In this document: in pieces, positions 16,073 to 26,878 of the stretch
Layout of the letters: every line of letters starts with the position of its first letter
Numbering within the stretch: position 1 is the stretch's first letter
Source: an uncultured Planctomycetaceae bacterium
GTDB taxonomy: Bacteria; Planctomycetota; Planctomycetia; Planctomycetales; Planctomycetaceae
Reading direction: 5' to 3'
Assembly: GCA_963815195.1 (NCBI GenBank)
Contig: CAWFGE010000023.1
Span: 64,001 to 128,000, forward strand
Length of the DNA stretch: 64,000 bases
The notes under the pieces: generated by a model
Told to the model about the DNA's origin: nothing
Seen by the model: the letters and a program-made list of their open reading frames with translations, nothing else
The model's database searches: none
Program-made: the position numbers and the translations under genes

Positions 16073-17098
16073 TCAGCTGATATATGCCGTCGGCCACTGC
16101 CGGGAACGCAACCCTAATGCGAGATACTCTGGATTCGGACGCGCATCGATCACGTTCGGCAATGCGATATGTTCCGGAAGCCGCCCTCGGAATTCGTCCA
16201 AACCCATGTCAAGCTGCAAAACGACAAGCTGCGAAGCCTTGTCGGGATTGACCACAATCTTATAACTCGACTGCACCCCCAAAAGCCCATTGTCGTAGGC
16301 TCCGTGGTGCAACCGGCACAGAGCTAGGCCATTGGTGACATCGTCGGTGGATTGAGGGTCGGACACCGGCACGATATGCGCCGCATCGACAAGCTTCAAA
16401 GCCGTTCCGCAGACCGCACAGCAATACCGGTAGGCCCTGAGCACCTTCGGCCGGAACTGCGCTTCCCGATACGCCCGCATTGTTTGAACCAGGTCGTATC
16501 GGCGCGCGGCTTGGATTTCATCTTCCGACTCATCCAAAAAGTTCCGTTCGTCGTCGTAGGCGGCGTCGGCCAGATCGGCGACGGCGGATGAATCCTCTTC
16601 GGAATTATGCAGCGGCAATCCCCGCTCGACATACCACAGGAGAGAATCCGGCTGAACCGCGACGACCACTTCTCGGCCCATTTCCGTGGGACGGAGATAC
16701 GTTGCGATTCCAGCGTGGAAGGCGGTTTCAAGCGTTTGCCGATTGACTTGAAGACTGTTTGACCGGCTTCGAAACCTCGTGTGCCGGCGGGGATCCCAAA
16801 AGACATACACGCCATGCTCGGCATTCCAGCCGCCCAACAACGTCCGCACGCCGGGCTGAAGCGGAATGCCTCTCAAACCGGTGGCCTGAATCCGCATTTC
16901 ATTCTCGGGCCGATTGCGTCCGCCCGGCGTAACAGCCCACAGGAAGAGGATACAATCCGTGGTCCCTTCGGAAGTGATGACTCGCAATCGTGCCGGTCGT
17001 TCCGGATCCGTTTCGCGTTCCCGGATGACCGTGGCGCTGGATCGTTCCAACGTCGCGACAAACTCATCGACCAATCGAGAGAAAGGAATCCCCGGCAT
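16073..17098 (-). CDS. HNH endonuclease with an uncharacterised N-terminal domain (putative restriction nuclease)
   Basis: C-terminal FRPKVLRAY..CAVC...DAAHIVP...NGLALCRLHHGAYD HNH; 12 bp downstream of the MTase. Confidence 0.85.
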   Translation of the reverse strand: MPGIPFSRLVDEFVATLERSSATVIRERETDPERPARLRVITSEGTTDCILFLWAVTPGGRNRPENEMRIQATGLRGIPLQPGVRTLLGGWNAEHGVYVFWDPRRHTRFRSRSNSLQVNRQTLETAFHAGIATYLRPTEMGREVVVAVQPDSLLWYVERGLPLHNSEEDSSAVADLADAAYDDERNFLDESEDEIQAARRYDLVQTMRAYREAQFRPKVLRAYRYCCAVCGTALKLVDAAHIVPVSDPQSTDDVTNGLALCRLHHGAYDNGLLGVQSSYKIVVNPDKASQLVVLQLDMGLDEFRGRLPEHIALPNVIDARPNPEYLALGLRSRQWPTAYIS

Positions 17099-17110
17099 TC
17101 CATTGCACCT

Positions 17111-18118
17111 TTAGTCCTTGGAAGGTTTGCGTTTTCCCGTCGAATGGCCTTGTTTCGCGGACAACTCATTGCCCGGTGCATCATCGAAAAGCGGTCCTGT
17201 TTCAAACCGAATCATGGAGCCTGCGACGTAGTTTGGTTCGAGTTCGGAAGCGATCCAACGACGATTGGTTTGATTGCAAACCGATCCCGTTACGTTGCTG
17301 CCGGCAAATGGGTCGATCACCAAATCCCCCGGTTTCGTGAGAAAGTCGATAAAAAACTTAACCAGTTGTTCGGGATAGCGCGCGGGATGGGGCTTTATGC
17401 CGCGCTTCCTGCATTCCCGGAGATAGGTGCTGTTGGATTCCGTGTTCGCGATCTGAATCAAATTCGGGGGAATCGCACCGCCGTTATCCTTTTGAAACTT
17501 TGTCGAGATGTCATGTCCGGACGGACGCTTCTTGGCTTTATACCCGTTTTTGATGAGGTTCTTCATGCTGTCGCTATATGGCTGAAGCACGCGGCGGTTG
17601 TCAGCGTTTGGGTATTCCGTCTTGCCGAACCACCAAACCATATTGACCGCATCCTTAACACGAATCCGGCGGACCGTCACCCACTCGGCGGGCGTCGGCA
17701 AACGGGCGGGGTTATACCAATAAAATTCCTGCGCCAGATGAAATTCTTTCGCCAAACGAACGGCAAGCTCAAAGTGATAGATGCTTCGGACCGGCGCTCC
17801 GGGAACCCAAGCCCCGCCGATGTCGAGTACGAAGCTCCCCTCCGCCTTCAAGATGCGCTTGATTTCAAGACAAAAAGGCATGAACCATTCCAGATATTTA
17901 TCCAGAGGCTCGTTGCCGTACTCTTTCTTGCGCGTTAAGGCGAAAGGCGGGGACGTGATGACAAGATCGACGCTTTCACTCGGAAGCGTAGTCAGCAATT
18001 CCAGAGCGTCCATTTCAAACATCGCCCCCAAGGGAGTGCTATAGGCCGGGGTGAGATCTGAGATTCTATAGGTTTTGGTCCAACCTAGGTCTTTATCAAA
18101 TCCGCCGCGGGTGAGCAT
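17111..18118 (-). CDS. Beta-class site-specific DNA methyltransferase, N4-cytosine type, M.PvuII-like
   Basis: TSPPFALTRKKEYGN (motif IV SPPF) precedes DPFAGSN (motif I); RPSGHDI, DNGGAIPPNL and HPAR segments as in M.PvuII. Confidence 0.92.
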   Translation of the reverse strand: MLTRGGFDKDLGWTKTYRISDLTPAYSTPLGAMFEMDALELLTTLPSESVDLVITSPPFALTRKKEYGNEPLDKYLEWFMPFCLEIKRILKAEGSFVLDIGGAWVPGAPVRSIYHFELAVRLAKEFHLAQEFYWYNPARLPTPAEWVTVRRIRVKDAVNMVWWFGKTEYPNADNRRVLQPYSDSMKNLIKNGYKAKKRPSGHDISTKFQKDNGGAIPPNLIQIANTESNSTYLRECRKRGIKPHPARYPEQLVKFFIDFLTKPGDLVIDPFAGSNVTGSVCNQTNRRWIASELEPNYVAGSMIRFETGPLFDDAPGNELSAKQGHSTGKRKPSKD

Positions 18119-19172: not shown

Positions 19173-22100
19173 ATGAACGTTGATGAACTGCTGAGGATTC
19201 TTGGTGAGCGCCGTATCACCTTATGGGTGGATGGGAAGGCCTTGCACTTTCGCGGGGAAGCGGGTGTTCTCGATTCCGAGTTGCTGTCAGAACTACGCCG
19301 GAATAAAAAAGACCTCATCGCCAAACTGCTGGAAGAACAGAATTCGCCCCCAACCAAGTCAATTGAGGGCGAATACTGTTCGCTGTCGCTGGGGCAGCAG
19401 GCGTTGTATTACTTGCACGTCGCGCATCCGCAGAGTGCCGCTTACAACGTCGCCTCCGCCGCACGGATTTGTTCGCCAATCGAACTGGATGCGATGCGAG
19501 AATCCTTCCGGGCGCTGATTGCCCGGCACGACGCGTTGCGGACCACGTTCGAAATCCGCCACGGCCAGCCTTGGGCCCACGTCCATCCGCACGGCGAGTT
19601 GGATTTCGAGCAGCGAATGGTGCCCGAGGGGAATGAAGACGAACTCGAAGCCGAAATCCGCCGGGAGTATCAGCGGCCGTTCGATCTCGCACGCGGTCCG
19701 CTATTGCGGGTTCGGGTTTGGACCCAGTCGCCCGCGAAGCATGTGTTTTTGATGACGCTGCATCACATCATCTTTGATGCCTGGTCGTTGTGGCTGATTC
19801 AAGACGAATTCCGGCAACTCTATCGGCAGTACACGGGCGGTTCACCGGCGCTATTTCCCACATTGGACCAGCGGTATCAAACGTTTGCCGAGGACCAGAA
19901 CGCACTGCGAACCAGCGAACAAGGCGAGAAGCTGTGGACATATTGGCGGGAACGCCTGGCCGGGGAACTGAGCCCCACGGATTTGCGGTTCGATCGGCCG
20001 CGGCGGATCGGCGCGGAACTCCAAGGTGACACGCACCACTTTCGGATTTCCAAAGACCTCTCCTCCCGGCTCCGCGCGTTGGGCCGATCGCAAGGGGCAA
20101 CGCCGTTCGTGGTGCTGCTGGCGATTTTCAAAGTCTTACTGTCGCGGTACACGGGCCAGACGGATCAAATTGTGGGAACGAGCACTTGGGGGCGGTCGAA
20201 TCCCAAATACCGCCGGGTCGTGGGATATTTCGTCAACACCGTCCCGATTCGGAGTGACACTTCGGGCGATCCCACGTTTTCCCAATTTCTGGGGCACATT
20301 AAAACGCGGACATTGGAGGCCCTCGAGCATCAGGATTTTCCGTTTCCGCTGTTGGTGGACCGTTTGAATCCCCGCCGGGAATCCGGGCAGTCGCCGATCT
20401 GCAACGTGATGTTCGGCGTGCAAAAGCCCCAGCAGTTCAGCGAAGTCATGCGGTTGTTCGACGAAGACGCCGAGGCCATCGATTGGGGCGGTTTGGAGGT
20501 GCATCCTTTCCAACTGAACCAGCAAGAAGGTCAATTTGATCTGACGATGGACCTGTTTGAGACGACCGATTCGTTCTGGGGTGCGCTGAAATACGATCCG
20601 GAGCTTTTCGATCGCGAGACGGTGGAACGCATGGCCCGGCATTTTGTGCATTTGGCCGAGGGAATTGCCCAAGACCCCAGCCGGGCGATTACGGATTATG
20701 ATCTTTCGCCGGCGGAAGAACGGTTCGCCATCCAGGCGTTTTGCGAATCCGGTCCGCGAGTCGCGGTGTCCAACGAGCGAGTGCACCGCCTGTTCGAGCA
20801 GCAAGCCGCCCGCTCGCCCCGCCAAATCGCCCTCGTCTGTGGCCGGCTCGCATTGACGTACGAGGAAGTCAATCACCGGGCGAATCAGGCTGCCTGCTTG
20901 CTGCGCGAAGAAAGCGTAAAACAAGGCACGCTCGTCGCCTGCCGGTTGGAACGCGGTCTGGATTCGGCCGTGTGGCTGCTCGCGATCTGGAAGGCCGGCG
21001 GCGTGTATCTCCCCTTGGATGCCGCGGATCCCCACGCCCGCTGCGCACAAATCCTGGAAAACTCCCGAGCGGAACTGCTCATCACCCAATCATCGCTGGA
21101 CTGGAACAGCGGCCAAAATTCATCGGCCGGTTCGCATCGGACGCTGCTTTTGGACGAACTCTCGGACCGGCTCAGTCAATACGCAGGCGACGAATTTGAC
21201 GGAGGAAATCTCCCCGCGAAGTTTGGCGTATATCCTGCACACCTCCGGTTCCACCGGCACCCCGAAGGGGGTTTGCGTTTCGCATGCGGCCTTGGCGGAG
21301 CATCTGCTTTCGATCCGCGAGGTCTATCAGCTCAAACCGGAAGACCGGGTGCTGCACTTCCATAATTTTACGTTCGACCCCTCGCTGGAAGAGTTGCTCG
21401 CTCCCTGGAGCGTGGGAGCAACGGTGCTGCTCAGGGGCGAGGACCTGTGGACGCCGGACACGTTTTGGGAAATCGTGCAAGATCAAAACGTGACGGTCGT
21501 GGATTTGCCGCCCGCGTATTTTCGGCAGTGCAATGAAGTGCTGGAACGAACCGGTGGAATTCCGGCGTCGCTTCGGCTGTTGATTATCGGCGGGGATGTT
21601 TTTCCCGCCGAGATGCTGAGCACATGGAAGGATTCCGGCGTGCGGATTCTCAATGCTTACGGGCCGACCGAAGCGGTGATCACGGCCACCGTCTATGATG
21701 CGACAGAGCATGACGTCGCGGTTCACCCTCGTGCGCCCATCGGCCGGCCCAAGCGGGGCCTGCGGGCGTATGTGCTCGACTCGCGGGGCCGGCCTTCACC
21801 GGTGGGCGTGCCGGGCGAACTCTATCTCGCCGGCCCGATGCTCGCCGACGGCTATTGGCGGGATCCGGAATTGACAGCCCGAAAGTTTCCCGCAAATCCC
21901 TTTGCCGAGGGCGGAATGTACCGCACCGGCGATCGCGCGGCCTGGCGGGCGGATGGAATGTTGGAGTTCCTCGGCCGGCGGGATCGGCAATTCAAAATCC
22001 ACGGCTTCCGCGTAGAAACGGCAGAAGTTGAGAGTCTCTTGAACCGCTCTCCGGGCGTTCGGCAGTCGTGTGTTCTCCCGCGGCGCGATTCCCAAGACGA

Positions 22101-22551
22101 ACCGTATCTCGTGGCCTGGATCGAAAGTGATGCCGACGCGGCAACTTTCGAGGCGGACGTCCGAACCGCTCTCAAACAACGCCTGCCGCAGTACATGCTG
22201 CCCCGGTATTTCGTCGTGCTGCCGCGATTGCCGGTCAAGGCCTCCGGGAAGATTGATGAGCACGCCTTGCCGGAACCGGAATCCTCTCCGCGTGTGCAGG
22301 CCGAATACATTGCCCCGCAATCACCCTGCGAGAAAAAGCTCGCGCGAATTTGGTCGGAGGTTTTGGAAGTGGAGGCCGTCGGAATCCATGATAACTTTTT
22401 CGATCTCGGCGGCGGATCTTTGACCAGTCTGCGAGTTGTCGCCTTAGCCCGGGACGAAGGCTTACTCGTCCAAGGCCTGCCGATGGGGCCCGAACTCTTG
22501 TTTGAATATCCCACCATCGCCGAACTCGCCGCCCTCTTGGACCCGTACTGA
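19173..22551 (+). CDS. Single-module NRPS: TubC-type N-terminal docking domain - C - A - PCP, no TE (frameshift near 21187)
   Basis: Docking-like N-terminus; HHIIFDA; A-domain LAYILHTSGSTGTPKG, FDPS, NAYGPTE, GELYLAG, YRTGD, SGKID; PCP FFDLGGGSL. Two ORFs join by removing one base. Confidence 0.92.
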
Positions 22552-22574
22552 AATTTCCACGCTGAAGCACAATA

Positions 22575-22752
22575 AAATCCGAAATCCGAATCTCGAAATC
22601 CGAAACAAATCCAAATGTCCAAAACTCCAAGTCGCAAAACTTTGAGCGACAAAGCACGAAAATTGGGAACGAATCCGCACAGTTTCGTTTGAGACATTCG
22701 GATTTGAGATTTTGAATTTGTTTCGGATTTTCGGATTTCGATATTCGAATTT
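22575..22752. repeat. Long imperfect inverted repeat built from AAATCCG-type heptamers (MITE-like)
   Basis: aaatccgaaatccgaatctcgaaatccgaaacaaat ... atttgtttcggattttcggatttcgatattcgaattt. Confidence 0.8.
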
Positions 22753-22790
22753 TAATCCTGCAGAATGCCACTCGATCAAGGCAAACAATC

Positions 22791-24791
22791 ATGCGCCATT
22801 CCAAATCCTACATTGCCGGCCTCGGCGTCTATCTTCCTCCCAAACAGGTGAGCACCGAGGAAATCATCAAAGGCTGTCGGAATCCGGTGCGCATTCCTTT
22901 GGAGCGGCTGACCGGGATCCGCAGCCGGCACATGGCCGGCGAGGATGAGTTCGCCATTGATCTTGCGGCCAAAGCCGTCGAGGATTGCCTGGACCGCACG
23001 GACACCGCCCCCGAAGAGTTCGACATTTTGATCTGCTGCAACATCTCGCGCTATGACGGGCCGCGGCTCGTCTCTTATGAACCCTCGACCGCTGCCGTCT
23101 TGAAAAAGCGCTTCGGCCTGACGAATGCCGTGGCGATGGACCTTTCGAATGCCTGCGCCGGCCTGTGGACCGGAGTGTATCTGGTCGATGCTTTGATTCG
23201 GACCGGAGCCATCCGCCGGGGTCTGGTGGTCAGCGGGGAATACATCAGCTATCTGGCGACGACGGCCCAGAAGGAGATCGTCGACTATCTCGATCCGCAA
23301 ATCGCTTCGCTCACGCTGGGGGATGCGGGCGTGGCCGTCGAGTTGCGGTTGTCGCCGTCGCCCGCGATCGGGTTTCATGACATCGAGCTTTACACGCTCG
23401 CGCAATACTCCCGCGACTGCATCGCCAAGCCCAGCGATAAAACCCACGGCGGCGCCGCGATGTATACGGACGCCGTCAAAGTCTCCTCGGCCGTCGTGCC
23501 CCATGCGGCGAAGCACGCGGAACAAATCCTCCGCAAGAACGGGCAGTCGGTCGAGCAGTTTCAGCACATCATTCCGCACCAGACATCCCGATTGACGATG
23601 AACGATGCGATCAAATCGGTGGCCGGCGAATTTCCGATCGACCTCGAGCACCGGCTCATTAACAATCTGACCCTTCGCGGGAACACCGCGACGACCAGCC
23701 ATTTTCTCGCGCTCCGGGACACAATGCTCGAAGGGCGGATTCAAGCGGGCGATGAGGTGCTGTTCCTGATTTCGGGTTCGGGGCAGACCACCGGCACGGC
23801 ACTCTACACGTGCGACGATCTGCCCGATCGCCTTCGCTCGAAAACTCCCCGCACGGGCGAAACCGCTTCGCCCAGCGTGCCCGGGGAAACGTTGGCCGTT
23901 CCCCTGCAATTCGAGTCCTTCGCCCAGGTCGCCCGGAATGAAATCGAGCCGAATGACACGCTGACGATGCTGGAGCACGTCGCCGAAACCTGCCTCGAAA
24001 AATCCCGGTACGCCAAGGAAGAGATGGAAGTTTTGATTTCCGTGGGGGTTTATCGCAGCGAGTTTTTGACCGAGCCTGCCATCGCGGCACTCCTCGCAGG
24101 CGATCTCAAGATGAACGACCGCCGCGAGCCCGACGAGGCGCACAAAACTTTCGCGTTTGATCTCTTAAACGGGTCGCTGGGGTTTTTGAACGCGTGCTAT
24201 CTCGCCGCCGAGCTTTCGCGGGCCGGCGGTCTCGAACGGGCGATGGTCGTCGCCTCGGAAATCGAAAACAACAAAGAGGTCATGCCCGGCCATTTGCTGG
24301 GCTTGCGGGAGATGGCGTCGGCGGCGATTTTGCACGAATCCGACGACGGCGAAACCGGCTTTCTCGCCTTTTCGTTCGATCAGTATCCCGAACATGCCGA
24401 CGCCCTGAGGGTGACCGGCACCTGGAGCGAACAGGGAAAACCGCATCTCATCCGGTCGGCGAGCGATGACCGCTATCTTTGGTACGTGGAAGACATCGAG
24501 AAGAGCGTTTCCCGGTTCCTCTGCGAACAGGGCGTGAGCCGGGACGAAATCCGGTTTCTCATCCCGCCGCAGATTTCCCCTGCGTTCGTGCGGGCCGTCA
24601 GCCAGGAACTTGGCATGCCCCATGCGGAGACGATCGACGTGTCCTTCGACGGGCAGGACCTCGCAACGTCCTCAACGCCCGCCGCCATGCAGGCCGTTGT
24701 GGAAAACAATCTCGCCCAGAAAGGCGAACTGGGGCTGATCATCAACATCGCGTCCGGTGGCCAGGTCGGATGCGCGCTGTACCAGTTTTAG
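22791..24791 (+). CDS. Tandem two-domain 3-oxoacyl-ACP synthase III / OleA-like condensing enzyme
   Basis: Domain 1: LERLTGIRSR, EPST (E97), NACAG (C122), SGE, ASLTLGD, PHQ (H263), GNT. Domain 2: TEPA (E428), NGSLG (Cys to Ser), PPQ (His lost). Confidence 0.88.
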   Translation: MRHSKSYIAGLGVYLPPKQVSTEEIIKGCRNPVRIPLERLTGIRSRHMAGEDEFAIDLAAKAVEDCLDRTDTAPEEFDILICCNISRYDGPRLVSYEPSTAAVLKKRFGLTNAVAMDLSNACAGLWTGVYLVDALIRTGAIRRGLVVSGEYISYLATTAQKEIVDYLDPQIASLTLGDAGVAVELRLSPSPAIGFHDIELYTLAQYSRDCIAKPSDKTHGGAAMYTDAVKVSSAVVPHAAKHAEQILRKNGQSVEQFQHIIPHQTSRLTMNDAIKSVAGEFPIDLEHRLINNLTLRGNTATTSHFLALRDTMLEGRIQAGDEVLFLISGSGQTTGTALYTCDDLPDRLRSKTPRTGETASPSVPGETLAVPLQFESFAQVARNEIEPNDTLTMLEHVAETCLEKSRYAKEEMEVLISVGVYRSEFLTEPAIAALLAGDLKMNDRREPDEAHKTFAFDLLNGSLGFLNACYLAAELSRAGGLERAMVVASEIENNKEVMPGHLLGLREMASAAILHESDDGETGFLAFSFDQYPEHADALRVTGTWSEQGKPHLIRSASDDRYLWYVEDIEKSVSRFLCEQGVSRDEIRFLIPPQISPAFVRAVSQELGMPHAETIDVSFDGQDLATSSTPAAMQAVVENNLAQKGELGLIINIASGGQVGCALYQF

Positions 24792-24797
24792 CCGAAC

Positions 24798-25754
24798 TCA
24801 GTCGTGTCGGCCCACGAGAATTCGCAATTGCTCCTCCAGTTGGCGGGCGGTTCTCTTGGTATACCGGCGCGGACTGATGATCTTTTTCAATCGGTCCGTC
24901 AAGAGGATCGGCGTCCCTTGGGCGAGCCGGAGCTGCGCAAACGCCCCCTCCCTGGGCAAGCCGAGAAAGAACTTGTCCGCATCGACATCCAGCACCCGGT
25001 CCTCTTGATCGTTTGGCGGCAAGGATTGAATCGGCTGATCGACCAATTCGTAGTCGGGATCGAACAGCCAAACCAACGTATGCAGCTCGCCCGTCTTGGG
25101 GGAAACGAGGATCGCATACCGGGTCATCATTTTTTTGTGTTGGCCGTCGATCAGCAGGATGGCATCGCTGTCAAAGACCAGCATTGTTGGCGTGCGGACA
25201 ATCTGCAGAAAGCCGGTTCGAAAATCCGTCTCGCATTGCGAAAGCACCTGGCGGGCGATGATGTCGAGATCGGCCCCAAGTTTTTTCTGAGTGGCGGAAG
25301 TTATGATTGTGTTCTTCCCGTCGATCTCCGTTCCAATGCCGATCGCCACTTGCTCCAGAGAGTATTCTTCGATTGCTCCCGTCCGATGCCGCTCCACGTC
25401 GGCCAGGCAGTTGACGGTATACACCGCGGCATAATACAGGACGGATCGGGGGACCTCTTTCACATTGCCGCTGCCAATTCGCGGATGGGCCGCATACACC
25501 AGATGAGACCAGCCTTTGGGAGGGGTCTTGCCGACGACCGTTCCGGGGGGAATCCAATCCAAAGGCTTTTCCTCAAGAACCACGCGTCCCGCTTCCGGAG
25601 GCGGGGAAACCGGAGGTTTCTTTGGGGGAGGCGGTTCCGCGACACGGCCCCAGAAGAACCACGACGCCAACAAGACCGGCAATAACGCCGCGAGGATCGT
25701 CAGCGGTCGAAAGGCGCGGGCACGTTTTTTCGTCTCGAACACAGGTTCAGGCAT
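24798..25754 (-). CDS. Hypothetical protein with N-terminal membrane anchor and Pro-rich linker
   Basis: One hydrophobic helix (LTILAALLPVLLASWFFW), PPPPKKPP linker, globular C-terminus. Confidence 0.7.
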   Translation of the reverse strand: MPEPVFETKKRARAFRPLTILAALLPVLLASWFFWGRVAEPPPPKKPPVSPPPEAGRVVLEEKPLDWIPPGTVVGKTPPKGWSHLVYAAHPRIGSGNVKEVPRSVLYYAAVYTVNCLADVERHRTGAIEEYSLEQVAIGIGTEIDGKNTIITSATQKKLGADLDIIARQVLSQCETDFRTGFLQIVRTPTMLVFDSDAILLIDGQHKKMMTRYAILVSPKTGELHTLVWLFDPDYELVDQPIQSLPPNDQEDRVLDVDADKFFLGLPREGAFAQLRLAQGTPILLTDRLKKIISPRRYTKRTARQLEEQLRILVGRHD

Positions 25755-25873
25755 AGCGGGGGGACGGATTCACCTTGGAAAGTCTGCAAAATGCAATTGT
25801 CGCGAATCCCGCGGAAGCCTGCCAGAGAAGTTTGAAATAGGACGCGCTTATCCACACGCGCTGCCTCGAATCC

Positions 25874-26878
25874 TTACAGCCATTGATGCTCAATATACCA
25901 GTCATATGTCTGACGTAGTTGCGTTTCGAGAGTCGCTTTGGAAGCGGCCTCGAGTTCCCGAGCGGCTCGTTCCGCCCGGCAGACCCAGGAACCCGCCCGG
26001 GCTTCCCGGATTTTGTCGAGGTTCAAAAATGTGGGCCGGCCCGTGATGCGTCCCCAGGCTTCCCACACGCCGGCCGCCATCCAGCATAGCGCCGACGGCA
26101 AAACCACGTTTCGCACCGATGCTCTCCCGAAGAACGGTCCCGACAACTCCGCCAGCTTGGCGAATGTCACCGGCTGAGGATGGGCCAGATAATAGATGCC
26201 TTGGTTCATAGGGTCGTCGCACGTTTTGATGGGTTTTCCCCTCTTCATGGCCGCCAGCATGCCGTCGATTAAATCGTGAACTTCCAAGAATGAGTAACGA
26301 GGCCTCACAGAGATCGCACAGACGTTAAGACCGCGTTTTATCGATTGAAAGAACAACAACAAATTACGATCCCCCGGACCGAAGACGCAAGGCGGCCGAA
26401 GAATGGTGATCGGCATCTGTGGAGAAATCTCTCTCAAGTAATCCTCCGCTTCCAGCTTCGTCCGTCCATAGTAGGAAACCGGCCGGCAGACATCCTGTTC
26501 CGTGACGCCTCCCTCCGAACTCGGCCCGGCTGCCGCGAGCGACGAGACATGGACGAGCTTTGGAGGGTTCGGCAGGTCGAGAACCGCATCCGCAAGGGTT
26601 TTCACTCCCCCGACATTGACCGACCGATAATACTTCAACGAAAAAGCCCCCGCGGCGGCCGCGAGATGGAAAATGCCATCCACCCCCCGGACGGCGGATT
26701 TCATCGCAACCGGATCGCGAATGTCGCCTTCCACGACTTCAACCGACTTGACGATCGAGTCAGGCAGACGCGAGGCACGTCGGACCAAGGCGACGGTTTC
26801 AATGCCCAGGTCCAACAGGGCAGGAACCAGCGATTTTCCGATGAATCCGGAAGCCCCGGTGACGAGCACGCGATTCAT
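25874..26878 (-). CDS. Extended SDR, NAD-dependent epimerase/dehydratase (3-beta-HSD/OleD-like superfamily)
   Basis: VTGASGFIG, FHLAA, HVSSLAA, YGRTK (YxxxK), RPPCVFGPGD. Confidence 0.88.
   Translation of the reverse strand: MNRVLVTGASGFIGKSLVPALLDLGIETVALVRRASRLPDSIVKSVEVVEGDIRDPVAMKSAVRGVDGIFHLAAAAGAFSLKYYRSVNVGGVKTLADAVLDLPNPPKLVHVSSLAAAGPSSEGGVTEQDVCRPVSYYGRTKLEAEDYLREISPQMPITILRPPCVFGPGDRNLLLFFQSIKRGLNVCAISVRPRYSFLEVHDLIDGMLAAMKRGKPIKTCDDPMNQGIYYLAHPQPVTFAKLAELSGPFFGRASVRNVVLPSALCWMAAGVWEAWGRITGRPTFLNLDKIREARAGSWVCRAERAARELEAASKATLETQLRQTYDWYIEHQWL

Follow-up and report, generated by a model that had tools for sequence, protein, structure and literature searches.

In the lipstatin (LstABCDEF) and nocardiolactone (NltABCD) pathways, a pair of type III ketosynthases (KS-III) carries a Cys-His-Asn (C-H-N) triad in one half and a glutamate in the other (available text of PMC12141560 and 10.1101/856955). 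The known bacterial sphingolipid routes, as far as the available parts of PMC11334938 and PMC12134224 describe them, start with a pyridoxal phosphate (PLP)-dependent enzyme of the serine palmitoyltransferase (Spt or SPT) type, and producers are predicted by searching for Spt. In the Spt-bCerS-CerR route, CerR reduces 3-keto-dihydroceramide as the last step (PMC11087976, PMC10865984 and 10.1101/2023.05.23.541633, each in its available text). Here we analyse a 64,000-nucleotide stretch of DNA (hereafter the window; contig CAWFGE010000023.1, positions 64,001 to 128,000) from the genome of an uncultured Planctomycetaceae bacterium, in which a nonribosomal peptide synthetase (NRPS), a fused double KS-III, a membrane-anchored protein and an extended short-chain dehydrogenase/reductase (SDR) lie side by side. 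We propose that this locus is the end half of an assembly line built of a fatty acyl-AMP ligase (FAAL), two polyketide synthases (PKS1 and PKS2) and the NRPS, in which the KS-III pair would release an N-acyl aminoketone that the SDR would reduce to a ceramide-like lipid; we judge this reading to be evenly poised between right and wrong.

The NRPS (19173-22551, plus strand) comprises a docking domain followed by condensation (C), adenylation (A) and peptidyl carrier protein (PCP) domains, and a Pfam scan found no thioesterase (TE) domain in it. The double KS-III of 666 residues (22791-24791, plus strand) has an LstA-like domain 1 and an LstB-like domain 2. It is faced on the minus strand by the membrane-anchored protein of 318 residues (24798-25754), with 6 bp between the two stop codons, and by the SDR of 334 residues (25874-26878), which carries TGxxGxxG, S112 and YxxxK at residues 137-141. 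For these three proteins and the convergent gap, the coordinates and domains given by an initial annotation, which had read the four genes as a lipstatin-like aminolipid pathway, proved correct.

Compared with Lst and Nlt, the pair studied here is fused and sits behind, or is itself fused to, an NRPS carrier; the cluster lacks LstC, LstD and LstF, its canonical C domain is fed by a PKS, and its reductase belongs to another family. With the Spt-bCerS-CerR system it shares the predicted N-acyl 3-keto intermediate that is reduced last (available text of PMC11087976 and 10.1101/2023.05.23.541633) and a reductase of the family found in spt-bCerS operons. However, no Spt or bCerS gene was found in the cluster, and in the proposed order the C domain of the NRPS would form the amide before the KS-III makes the C-C bond, with the head chosen by the A domain. 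The nearest described ceramide-type precedent is a PKS plus an SPT: in Pseudomonas SgaAB, a PKS gives the sphingolipid chain and an SDR lies in the cluster, but SgaB is a PLP-dependent SPT, whereas the window system has no PLP enzyme (available text of PMC12134224). OleA and NocG combine a glutamate with a C-H-N triad for the non-decarboxylative Claisen condensation that we propose for the window KS, and NocG takes carrier-bound substrates from a FAAL-acyl carrier protein (ACP) (PMC9486936). Both are single-domain enzymes that join two fatty acyl chains, and the OleA-like protein of this genome is 25% identical to the window KS. The tubulysin, epothilone and FR-901375 lines share the PKS C-terminal motif and the TubC-type docking domain before the C domain (available text of 10.1101/2025.03.13.642309), whereas they release their chains by TE, reductase (R) or C domains and the window line would do so by a KS-III didomain.

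Domain 1 of the double KS carries the triad C122/H263/N298, whereas domain 2 has S462/P593/D623 at these sites and hence no triad. E428 of domain 2 aligns with E60 of an LstB-like protein (L105) whose partner has C128/H271/N305, and the published residues are C128/H271/N305 for LstA and E60 for LstB (PMC12141560). C122, H263, N298 and E428 are kept in 238, 240, 240 and 238 of 240 homologues, respectively. Among the best plasmid matches of the KS, four regions were examined, and three of them proved to be complete lstABCDEF-type clusters; these lie on Streptomyces and Rhodococcus plasmids (L104, L105, L107), and L106 holds the KS pair only, next to a wax-ester synthase and genes for trehalose. 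To the LstA-like proteins of the three clusters domain 1 shows 37-41% identity, against 25-26% to this genome's own OleA-like and FabH proteins, and domain 2 has its best matches in LstB-like proteins. A quick tree, which drew long-branch warnings and took its references from the lst-type plasmid clusters and not from the type strain record, placed domain 1 with LstA-like proteins (SH-aLRT 93) and domain 2 with LstB-like proteins (99), apart from OleA and FabH. Judged by its residues and its place in the tree, the double KS-III is a genuine LstA/LstB pair in fused form, in agreement with the type first assigned to it, and is predicted to catalyse a non-decarboxylative Claisen condensation. The AlphaFold2 model of the protein has a pLDDT of 89.7; no solved fused KS-III form was found, and a Foldseek search with the model returned single KS-III chains only.

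Homologue searches for the KS pair returned 1075 proteins plus 409 longer forms. Among the best 120 of the 409 longer homologues, the pair is C-terminal in 118, mostly behind C-A-PCP, and it is therefore likely to be the release enzyme of an assembly line. A genome collection yielded 422 confirmed KS-pair stretches, the best 80 of which were analysed as loci. A carrier domain lies directly upstream of the pair in 60 of these 80 (37 fused, 23 split), and PKS or FAAL genes are present in all 48 carrier-adjacent loci that have at least 9 kb upstream. Cultured genera with the family include Rosistilla, Pirellulimonas, Aporhodopirellula, Dictyobacter and Thermosporothrix. Some of the feeding lines deliver reduced or plain acyl chains (FAAL-ACP-C-A-PCP-KS-KS; KS-acyltransferase (AT)-ketoreductase (KR)), and a beta-keto amide is therefore not required as the KS substrate. 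The Claisen step is supported by two Bacteroidota loci in which OleB/C/D-like genes adjoin the KS pair; in one of the two genomes the pair is the only OleA-family match.

These two Bacteroidota clusters (L044:4109-13360 and L030:5613-13363) contain OleB/C/D-like genes, a stand-alone double KS, a P450, a FAAL, a luciferase-like monooxygenase and a PKS. Minimal fusions of the types FAAL-ACP-KS-KS and C-PCP-KS-KS were also seen (L083:6935-11998, P0181, P0121). A double KS that lacks any carrier, NRPS or PKS gene in its vicinity occurs in L049, L064, L071, L073, L079, L081 and L006 (Lentisphaeria, G012); in G012 the KS is present and its 12.7-kb contig holds no NRPS.

Intact planctomycete clusters have the order SDR (divergent), FAAL-ACP-KS-AT-dehydratase (DH)-methyltransferase (MT)-enoylreductase (ER)-KR-ACP, KS-(AT)-DH-ACP, NRPS and KS pair, often with ABC transporter genes. 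In this genome (G000; its other contigs mentioned here are C10 and C13, and its congeners are G001-G003), the front half was found at C10:310319-323242 as FAAL-ACP-KS-AT-DH-MT-ER-KR-ACP, followed by KS-AT-DH-ACP with a docking motif. This PKS2 ends in WVEGVL, as do 16 of the 16 planctomycete PKS2 proteins that abut this NRPS, and C-terminal motifs of this type pair with TubC-type docking domains (available text of 10.1101/2025.03.13.642309). The expected counterpart in the window is a TubC-type beta-hairpin docking domain at the N-terminus of the NRPS (Pfam TubC_N; 19173-19328, plus strand), because of which the NRPS is not stand-alone, as had first been supposed. On this evidence from motifs and domain order, the window locus is the end half of a FAAL-PKS-PKS-NRPS line whose first half sits on C10. 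A complex prediction of the docking domain and C domain with the PKS2 ACP and motif scored 0.15 and was not used for or against the pairing.

Both split halves are present in G000 and in G003, and neither half in G001 or G002. The KS system is rare, occurring in 2 of 40 relatives; in a phylum-wide co-occurrence scan, which scored few candidates per genome, the KS was found in 1 of 300 other genomes and a paralogue-level SDR in 2 of 300. A sequence check of both halves turned up no trace of a PKS ahead of the NRPS and none of an NRPS behind PKS2.

Pfam matches along the NRPS are TubC_N at residues 3-52, Condensation at 70-517 (335 bits), AMP-binding in both open reading frames (ORFs) and PP-binding, and its C domain is the sole C domain in this genome. 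The C-A-PCP architecture without a TE that had been annotated thus stands, but not as a single ORF: in the assembly the gene is split by a +1 frameshift near 21191 into two overlapping frames, 19173-21365 and 21019-22551. One contig of sequencing run X1, which is 266 bp long, free of mismatches, covered at a depth of 2.6 and possibly from the source sample, lacks one base at 21191, and with that base removed the frame is continuous through the A3 motif. The frameshift is therefore likely to be an assembly error, with this single contig as witness. A collapsed 14-bp repeat had been considered as its cause and was dropped, since the run X1 contig shows a single extra base instead.

The A-domain core (21199-22290, plus strand) has the pocket code DPEDIGAITK, and the pocket DPE[DN]IG[AS][IV]TK is common to all 21 planctomycete loci. 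Its best single-domain match in the PDB is ApnA A1 (249 bits). We take both this code and ApnA A1 to be assigned to arginine; the A domain looks specific for a basic residue, as initially annotated, with arginine favoured. Among 117 fused homologues, 71 pockets fall into a class that we presume to be Ser-like, 20 into a presumed Gly-like and 4 into a presumed Asn-like class, and 22 are other. The A domain would thus set the head group, basic here and Ser-like in those 71 of 117 homologues. The N-terminal domains of LstE-like proteins gave no Pfam Condensation match and no BLAST match to the window C domain. By these comparisons the window NRPS has a canonical C domain and is not LstE-like, so that the LstE-like role proposed for it falls away.

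The SDR had been set aside as a bystander, with no match within the 10-kb flanks of the loci, until whole-genome searches overturned this by finding cluster-linked orthologues. Gene context indicates that the SDR belongs to the NRPS-KS cluster: of 10 other planctomycete genomes tested, 7 have an orthologue immediately next to the start of the FAAL gene (one across a contig break), and in G003 the orthologue directly follows PKS2. By eye, 13 contigs are apparently common to the KS and SDR match lists, three of which are genomes already counted, and a close SDR copy occurs only in G000 and G003 among 41 related genomes. With the OleD model the window SDR scores 72 bits, against 213-228 bits for LstD-like proteins and 416 for an OleD-like protein, and a joint clade of the window SDR with OleD/LstD was rejected (approximately unbiased (AU) test, p=0.0017). 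On both measures it falls outside OleD/LstD, the group to which it had been assigned.

The affinities of the SDR point instead to reductases of sphingolipid operons. In a Bacteroidota genome it is matched best by the third member of a run of spt, GNAT, SDR and pgpA genes, and the best match of that spt-operon SDR in G000 is the window SDR (145 bits; next 105), which makes the two reciprocal best matches. Family members occur in 7 of 151 genomes of the same Bacteroidota class, and 6 of the 7 adjoin spt and/or bCerS-like genes. The cluster SDRs, their planctomycete paralogues and the spt/bCerS-linked reductases form one clade in two trees, the first of 39 rows and the second without five long-branch or partial rows (support 98 and 97). 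By gene context, the window SDR is a candidate CerR-family ceramide reductase. No bCerS-like match was found in G000 (94.6% complete; searched with one query), G003, G041 or G042, and a search of three Ktedonobacteria and two Mycobacterium genomes, with one query and without a positive control, found no bCerS. In G045, a bCerS-like gene lies beside an SDR paralogue.

In the route that we propose, the FAAL-PKS-PKS half would load a fatty acid, extend it and add methyl branches, and the chain would then dock on the NRPS to be linked through an amide to a basic amino acid, probably arginine. The double KS would take the N-acyl-aminoacyl group off the PCP and, by means of C122 in domain 1 and E428 in domain 2, join it head-to-head to a second acyl thioester in a Claisen condensation that releases the chain. 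Loss of CO2 from the beta-keto acid would give an N-acyl alpha-amino ketone, which is the skeleton of 3-keto-dihydroceramide; the same N-acyl aminoketone skeleton would result from either Claisen direction. Ketone formation by loss of CO2 is documented for NltAB/OleA products (available text of 10.1101/856955), and the beta-keto acid of NocG decarboxylates to a ketone (PMC9486936). The CerR-family SDR would finally reduce the ketone, and the product would be a two-tailed, ceramide-like lipid in which a cationic side chain replaces the CH2OH of serine. In the Ser-coded homologues, the same chemistry would yield real dihydroceramides without serine palmitoyltransferase or bCerS. For the ceramide-like nature of the product we see about an even chance. 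A cationic two-tailed lipid, as first suggested, is a reasonable product, but the suggested route via an alpha-branched beta-hydroxy acid does not hold up: most likely, N-acylation of the amino acid would precede its condensation by the KS, and the amino acid would not be esterified to a ready-made acid of that kind. Lysine-containing ceramides from the Black Sea were considered as a parallel to the product and not counted, as they are described with lysine as the C1 head group.

Several observations weigh against this proposal. No product or activity is known for any family member, and we know of no characterised LstAB/OleA enzyme that accepts an aminoacyl thioester. The arginine assignment of the A domain is presumed, and no paper carrying the code DPEDIGAITK was found in the literature. 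The CerR label comes from gene context and not from comparison with the tested CerR proteins BF9343_4240 or CCNA_01222; sequence identity is only 28-31%, planctomycete paralogues of its clade sit in unrelated, mixed contexts, and bCerS-like genes are also present in G043 and G044. In 3 of the 10 genomes tested the SDR is not adjacent to the cluster, being on another small contig, represented by a weaker distant match, or absent from a 3.4-Mb bin. An adjacent carrier is missing from 20 of the 80 KS-pair loci, and within 10 kb downstream the Ktedonobacterial Ser-type loci carry a gene resembling type II thioesterases and, for the most part, lack an SDR. The membrane protein or weaker homologues of it lie near the KS in only 6 of the 21 planctomycete loci. 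The PKS half in G000 and G003 has its two AT domains reduced to short in-frame remnants without GHSxG, so that a trans-acting AT would be needed, and PKS1 on C10 carries two further apparent frameshifts in this assembly. Lastly, the SDR could serve PKS2, because PKS2 has a DH but no KR.

As to the AT domains, that of PKS1 is intact in the four unsplit clusters checked. The AT loss in G000 (C10:310319-323242, L088) and G003 (C20; L102, L103) may reflect a shift from cis-AT to trans-AT.

If the SDR did serve PKS2, the same line and the same KS release would operate, but the SDR would be the missing ketoreductase of PKS2 acting in trans, and the product would keep its ketone or acid. PKS2 (KS-AT-DH-ACP) lacks a KR in every planctomycete cluster examined, and the position of the SDR, at the PKS end of the cluster in seven genomes and directly after PKS2 in G003, would suit such a role. 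Against this, the SDR family is tied to spt and bCerS elsewhere, and in G000 the SDR stayed with the NRPS-KS half; in mycobacterial and other loci, moreover, unrelated SDRs lie right behind the KS although the PKS there carries its own KR (L056, L080). We regard a trans-acting ketoreductase as an unlikely explanation.

The same lack of a KR in the last PKS module would allow PKS2 to deliver a beta-keto amide, from which the double KS could close a 3-acyl tetramic acid by a Dieckmann reaction, or to which it could add malonyl-CoA in the manner of FabH. The outcome would be a small secondary metabolite, not a two-tailed lipid. The intact C-H-N triad would permit decarboxylative chemistry, and ABC exporter genes lie near many loci. 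However, many of the homologous lines supply plain or reduced acyl chains or lack an NRPS altogether, and lines with such chains argue against a general Dieckmann closure; the LstB-type glutamate conserved in 238 of 240 homologues and the two loci with OleB/C/D-like genes beside the KS pair also speak against this reading. We hold closure or malonyl addition by the double KS to be quite improbable.

The locus could also be the decaying remnant of a broken cluster that makes nothing in this organism. The frameshifts in the NRPS and PKS1, the degenerate AT domains, the separation of the halves onto different contigs and the scarcity of the system (seen in 2 of 40 relatives and in 1 of 300 genomes of the phylum) would all fit such decay. 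Yet the NRPS frameshift is missing from the matching run X1 contig, the AT remnants are in frame in both G000 and G003, and a PPTase homologue is present in G000. The two congeners, which are only 44-78% identical, have also kept both halves, the docking motif and all KS, DH, MT, ER, KR and ACP motifs. A dead locus therefore seems distinctly improbable to us.

The lipstatin-like pathway of the initial annotation, in which the KS would join two acyl-CoAs, the SDR reduce the product like OleD/LstD and the NRPS esterify or amidate an amino acid like LstE, has the LstA/LstB type of the KS and the co-occurrence of the genes in its favour but is very improbable, appearing already contradicted on two defining parts by the SDR (72 bits with the OleD model, p-AU 0.0017) and by the LstE-like proteins with neither a Condensation match nor a BLAST match to the window C domain, and the NRPS docks to a PKS, lies upstream of the KS and is often fused to it. 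An LstC/OleC beta-lactone synthetase is in neither half of the cluster, on the window or on C10. No OleB or OleC adjoins the window locus, as had been noted, and this genome encodes its OleC and OleD on C13, the OleC-like gene being at C13:731279.

The membrane-anchored protein has one N-terminal hydrophobic stretch and no Pfam match, and its unannotated family counts 550 representatives at 50% clustering. A 66% identical orthologue adjoins the KS in G003. The co-occurrence of genes that was first proposed is borne out for the SDR, KS and NRPS; the membrane-anchored protein we treat as accessory. Its structural model is confident and beta-rich (pLDDT 96.8); searches with it gave no Foldseek match at E<=0.001, a best VIA Z of 4.9 and no usable ESM Atlas match, and would point to neither a known nor a new fold. 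Paralogues of the protein lie beside another lipid PKS. This second PKS, at C13:398746-412386 (L090, L091), has the composition NMO-like-KS-AT, KR and DH-PPTase, and its neighbours are the membrane-protein paralogue, a second unknown protein, an O-methyltransferase and an ABC transporter, with a similar pairing in G001, G002 and G027.

Between the NRPS and the KS lies a dispersed inverted-repeat element (22566-22760) outside the pathway. The element has about 95 related sites across G000, and a large number of foreign contigs align to it. In the place that PKS2 takes in relatives, immediately upstream of the NRPS, the window has an HNH nuclease and an N6/N4 DNA methyltransferase (16073-18118, minus strand). 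The nuclease matches MTaX1 and HNH_2, with a weak match to phosphorothioate-DNA restriction enzymes, and the GC content falls to 0.557 across this region.

In the literature, with subscription papers thinly covered, we found neither an NRPS that terminates in a KS-III pair nor a ceramide route independent of SPT described. The available text of a survey of Ktedonobacteria biosynthetic gene clusters (PMC6497799) contained no mention of FabH or KS III, and the available parts of PMC7064751 and PMC13311259 added nothing further on novelty. The fused LstAB itself may already have been described, since a review, where it mentions natural chimeras formed by fusion, refers to Zhang 2019. The hybrid PKS-NRPS studied here is a real variant, apparently undescribed so far, whose terminal enzyme, a KS-III pair, is of a new kind.

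Taken more broadly, NRPS lines that end in a fused LstA/LstB KS could be a widespread, undescribed and PLP-free route to ceramides or their mimics. The A domain would pick the head, the C domain would form the amide, the KS would make the C-C bond in a Dakin-West-like manner, and a recruited SDR would finish the product. Ktedonobacteria, environmental mycobacteria and planctomycetes without bCerS would then be hidden sphingolipid makers, and the window locus, together with its separate other half, would produce a ceramide mimic whose head is a cationic arginine. We advance this generalisation tentatively and think it somewhat more likely to fail than to hold. If true, a route through an NRPS and a KS-III would be invisible to Spt-based searches for producers and would represent a new chain-release chemistry for NRPS enzymology; because single fused proteins exist, its key step is open to direct test. 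Should the ceramide reading prove wrong, two findings would still stand: PKS-NRPS lines that terminate in a KS-III didomain, and a docked assembly line split over two loci.

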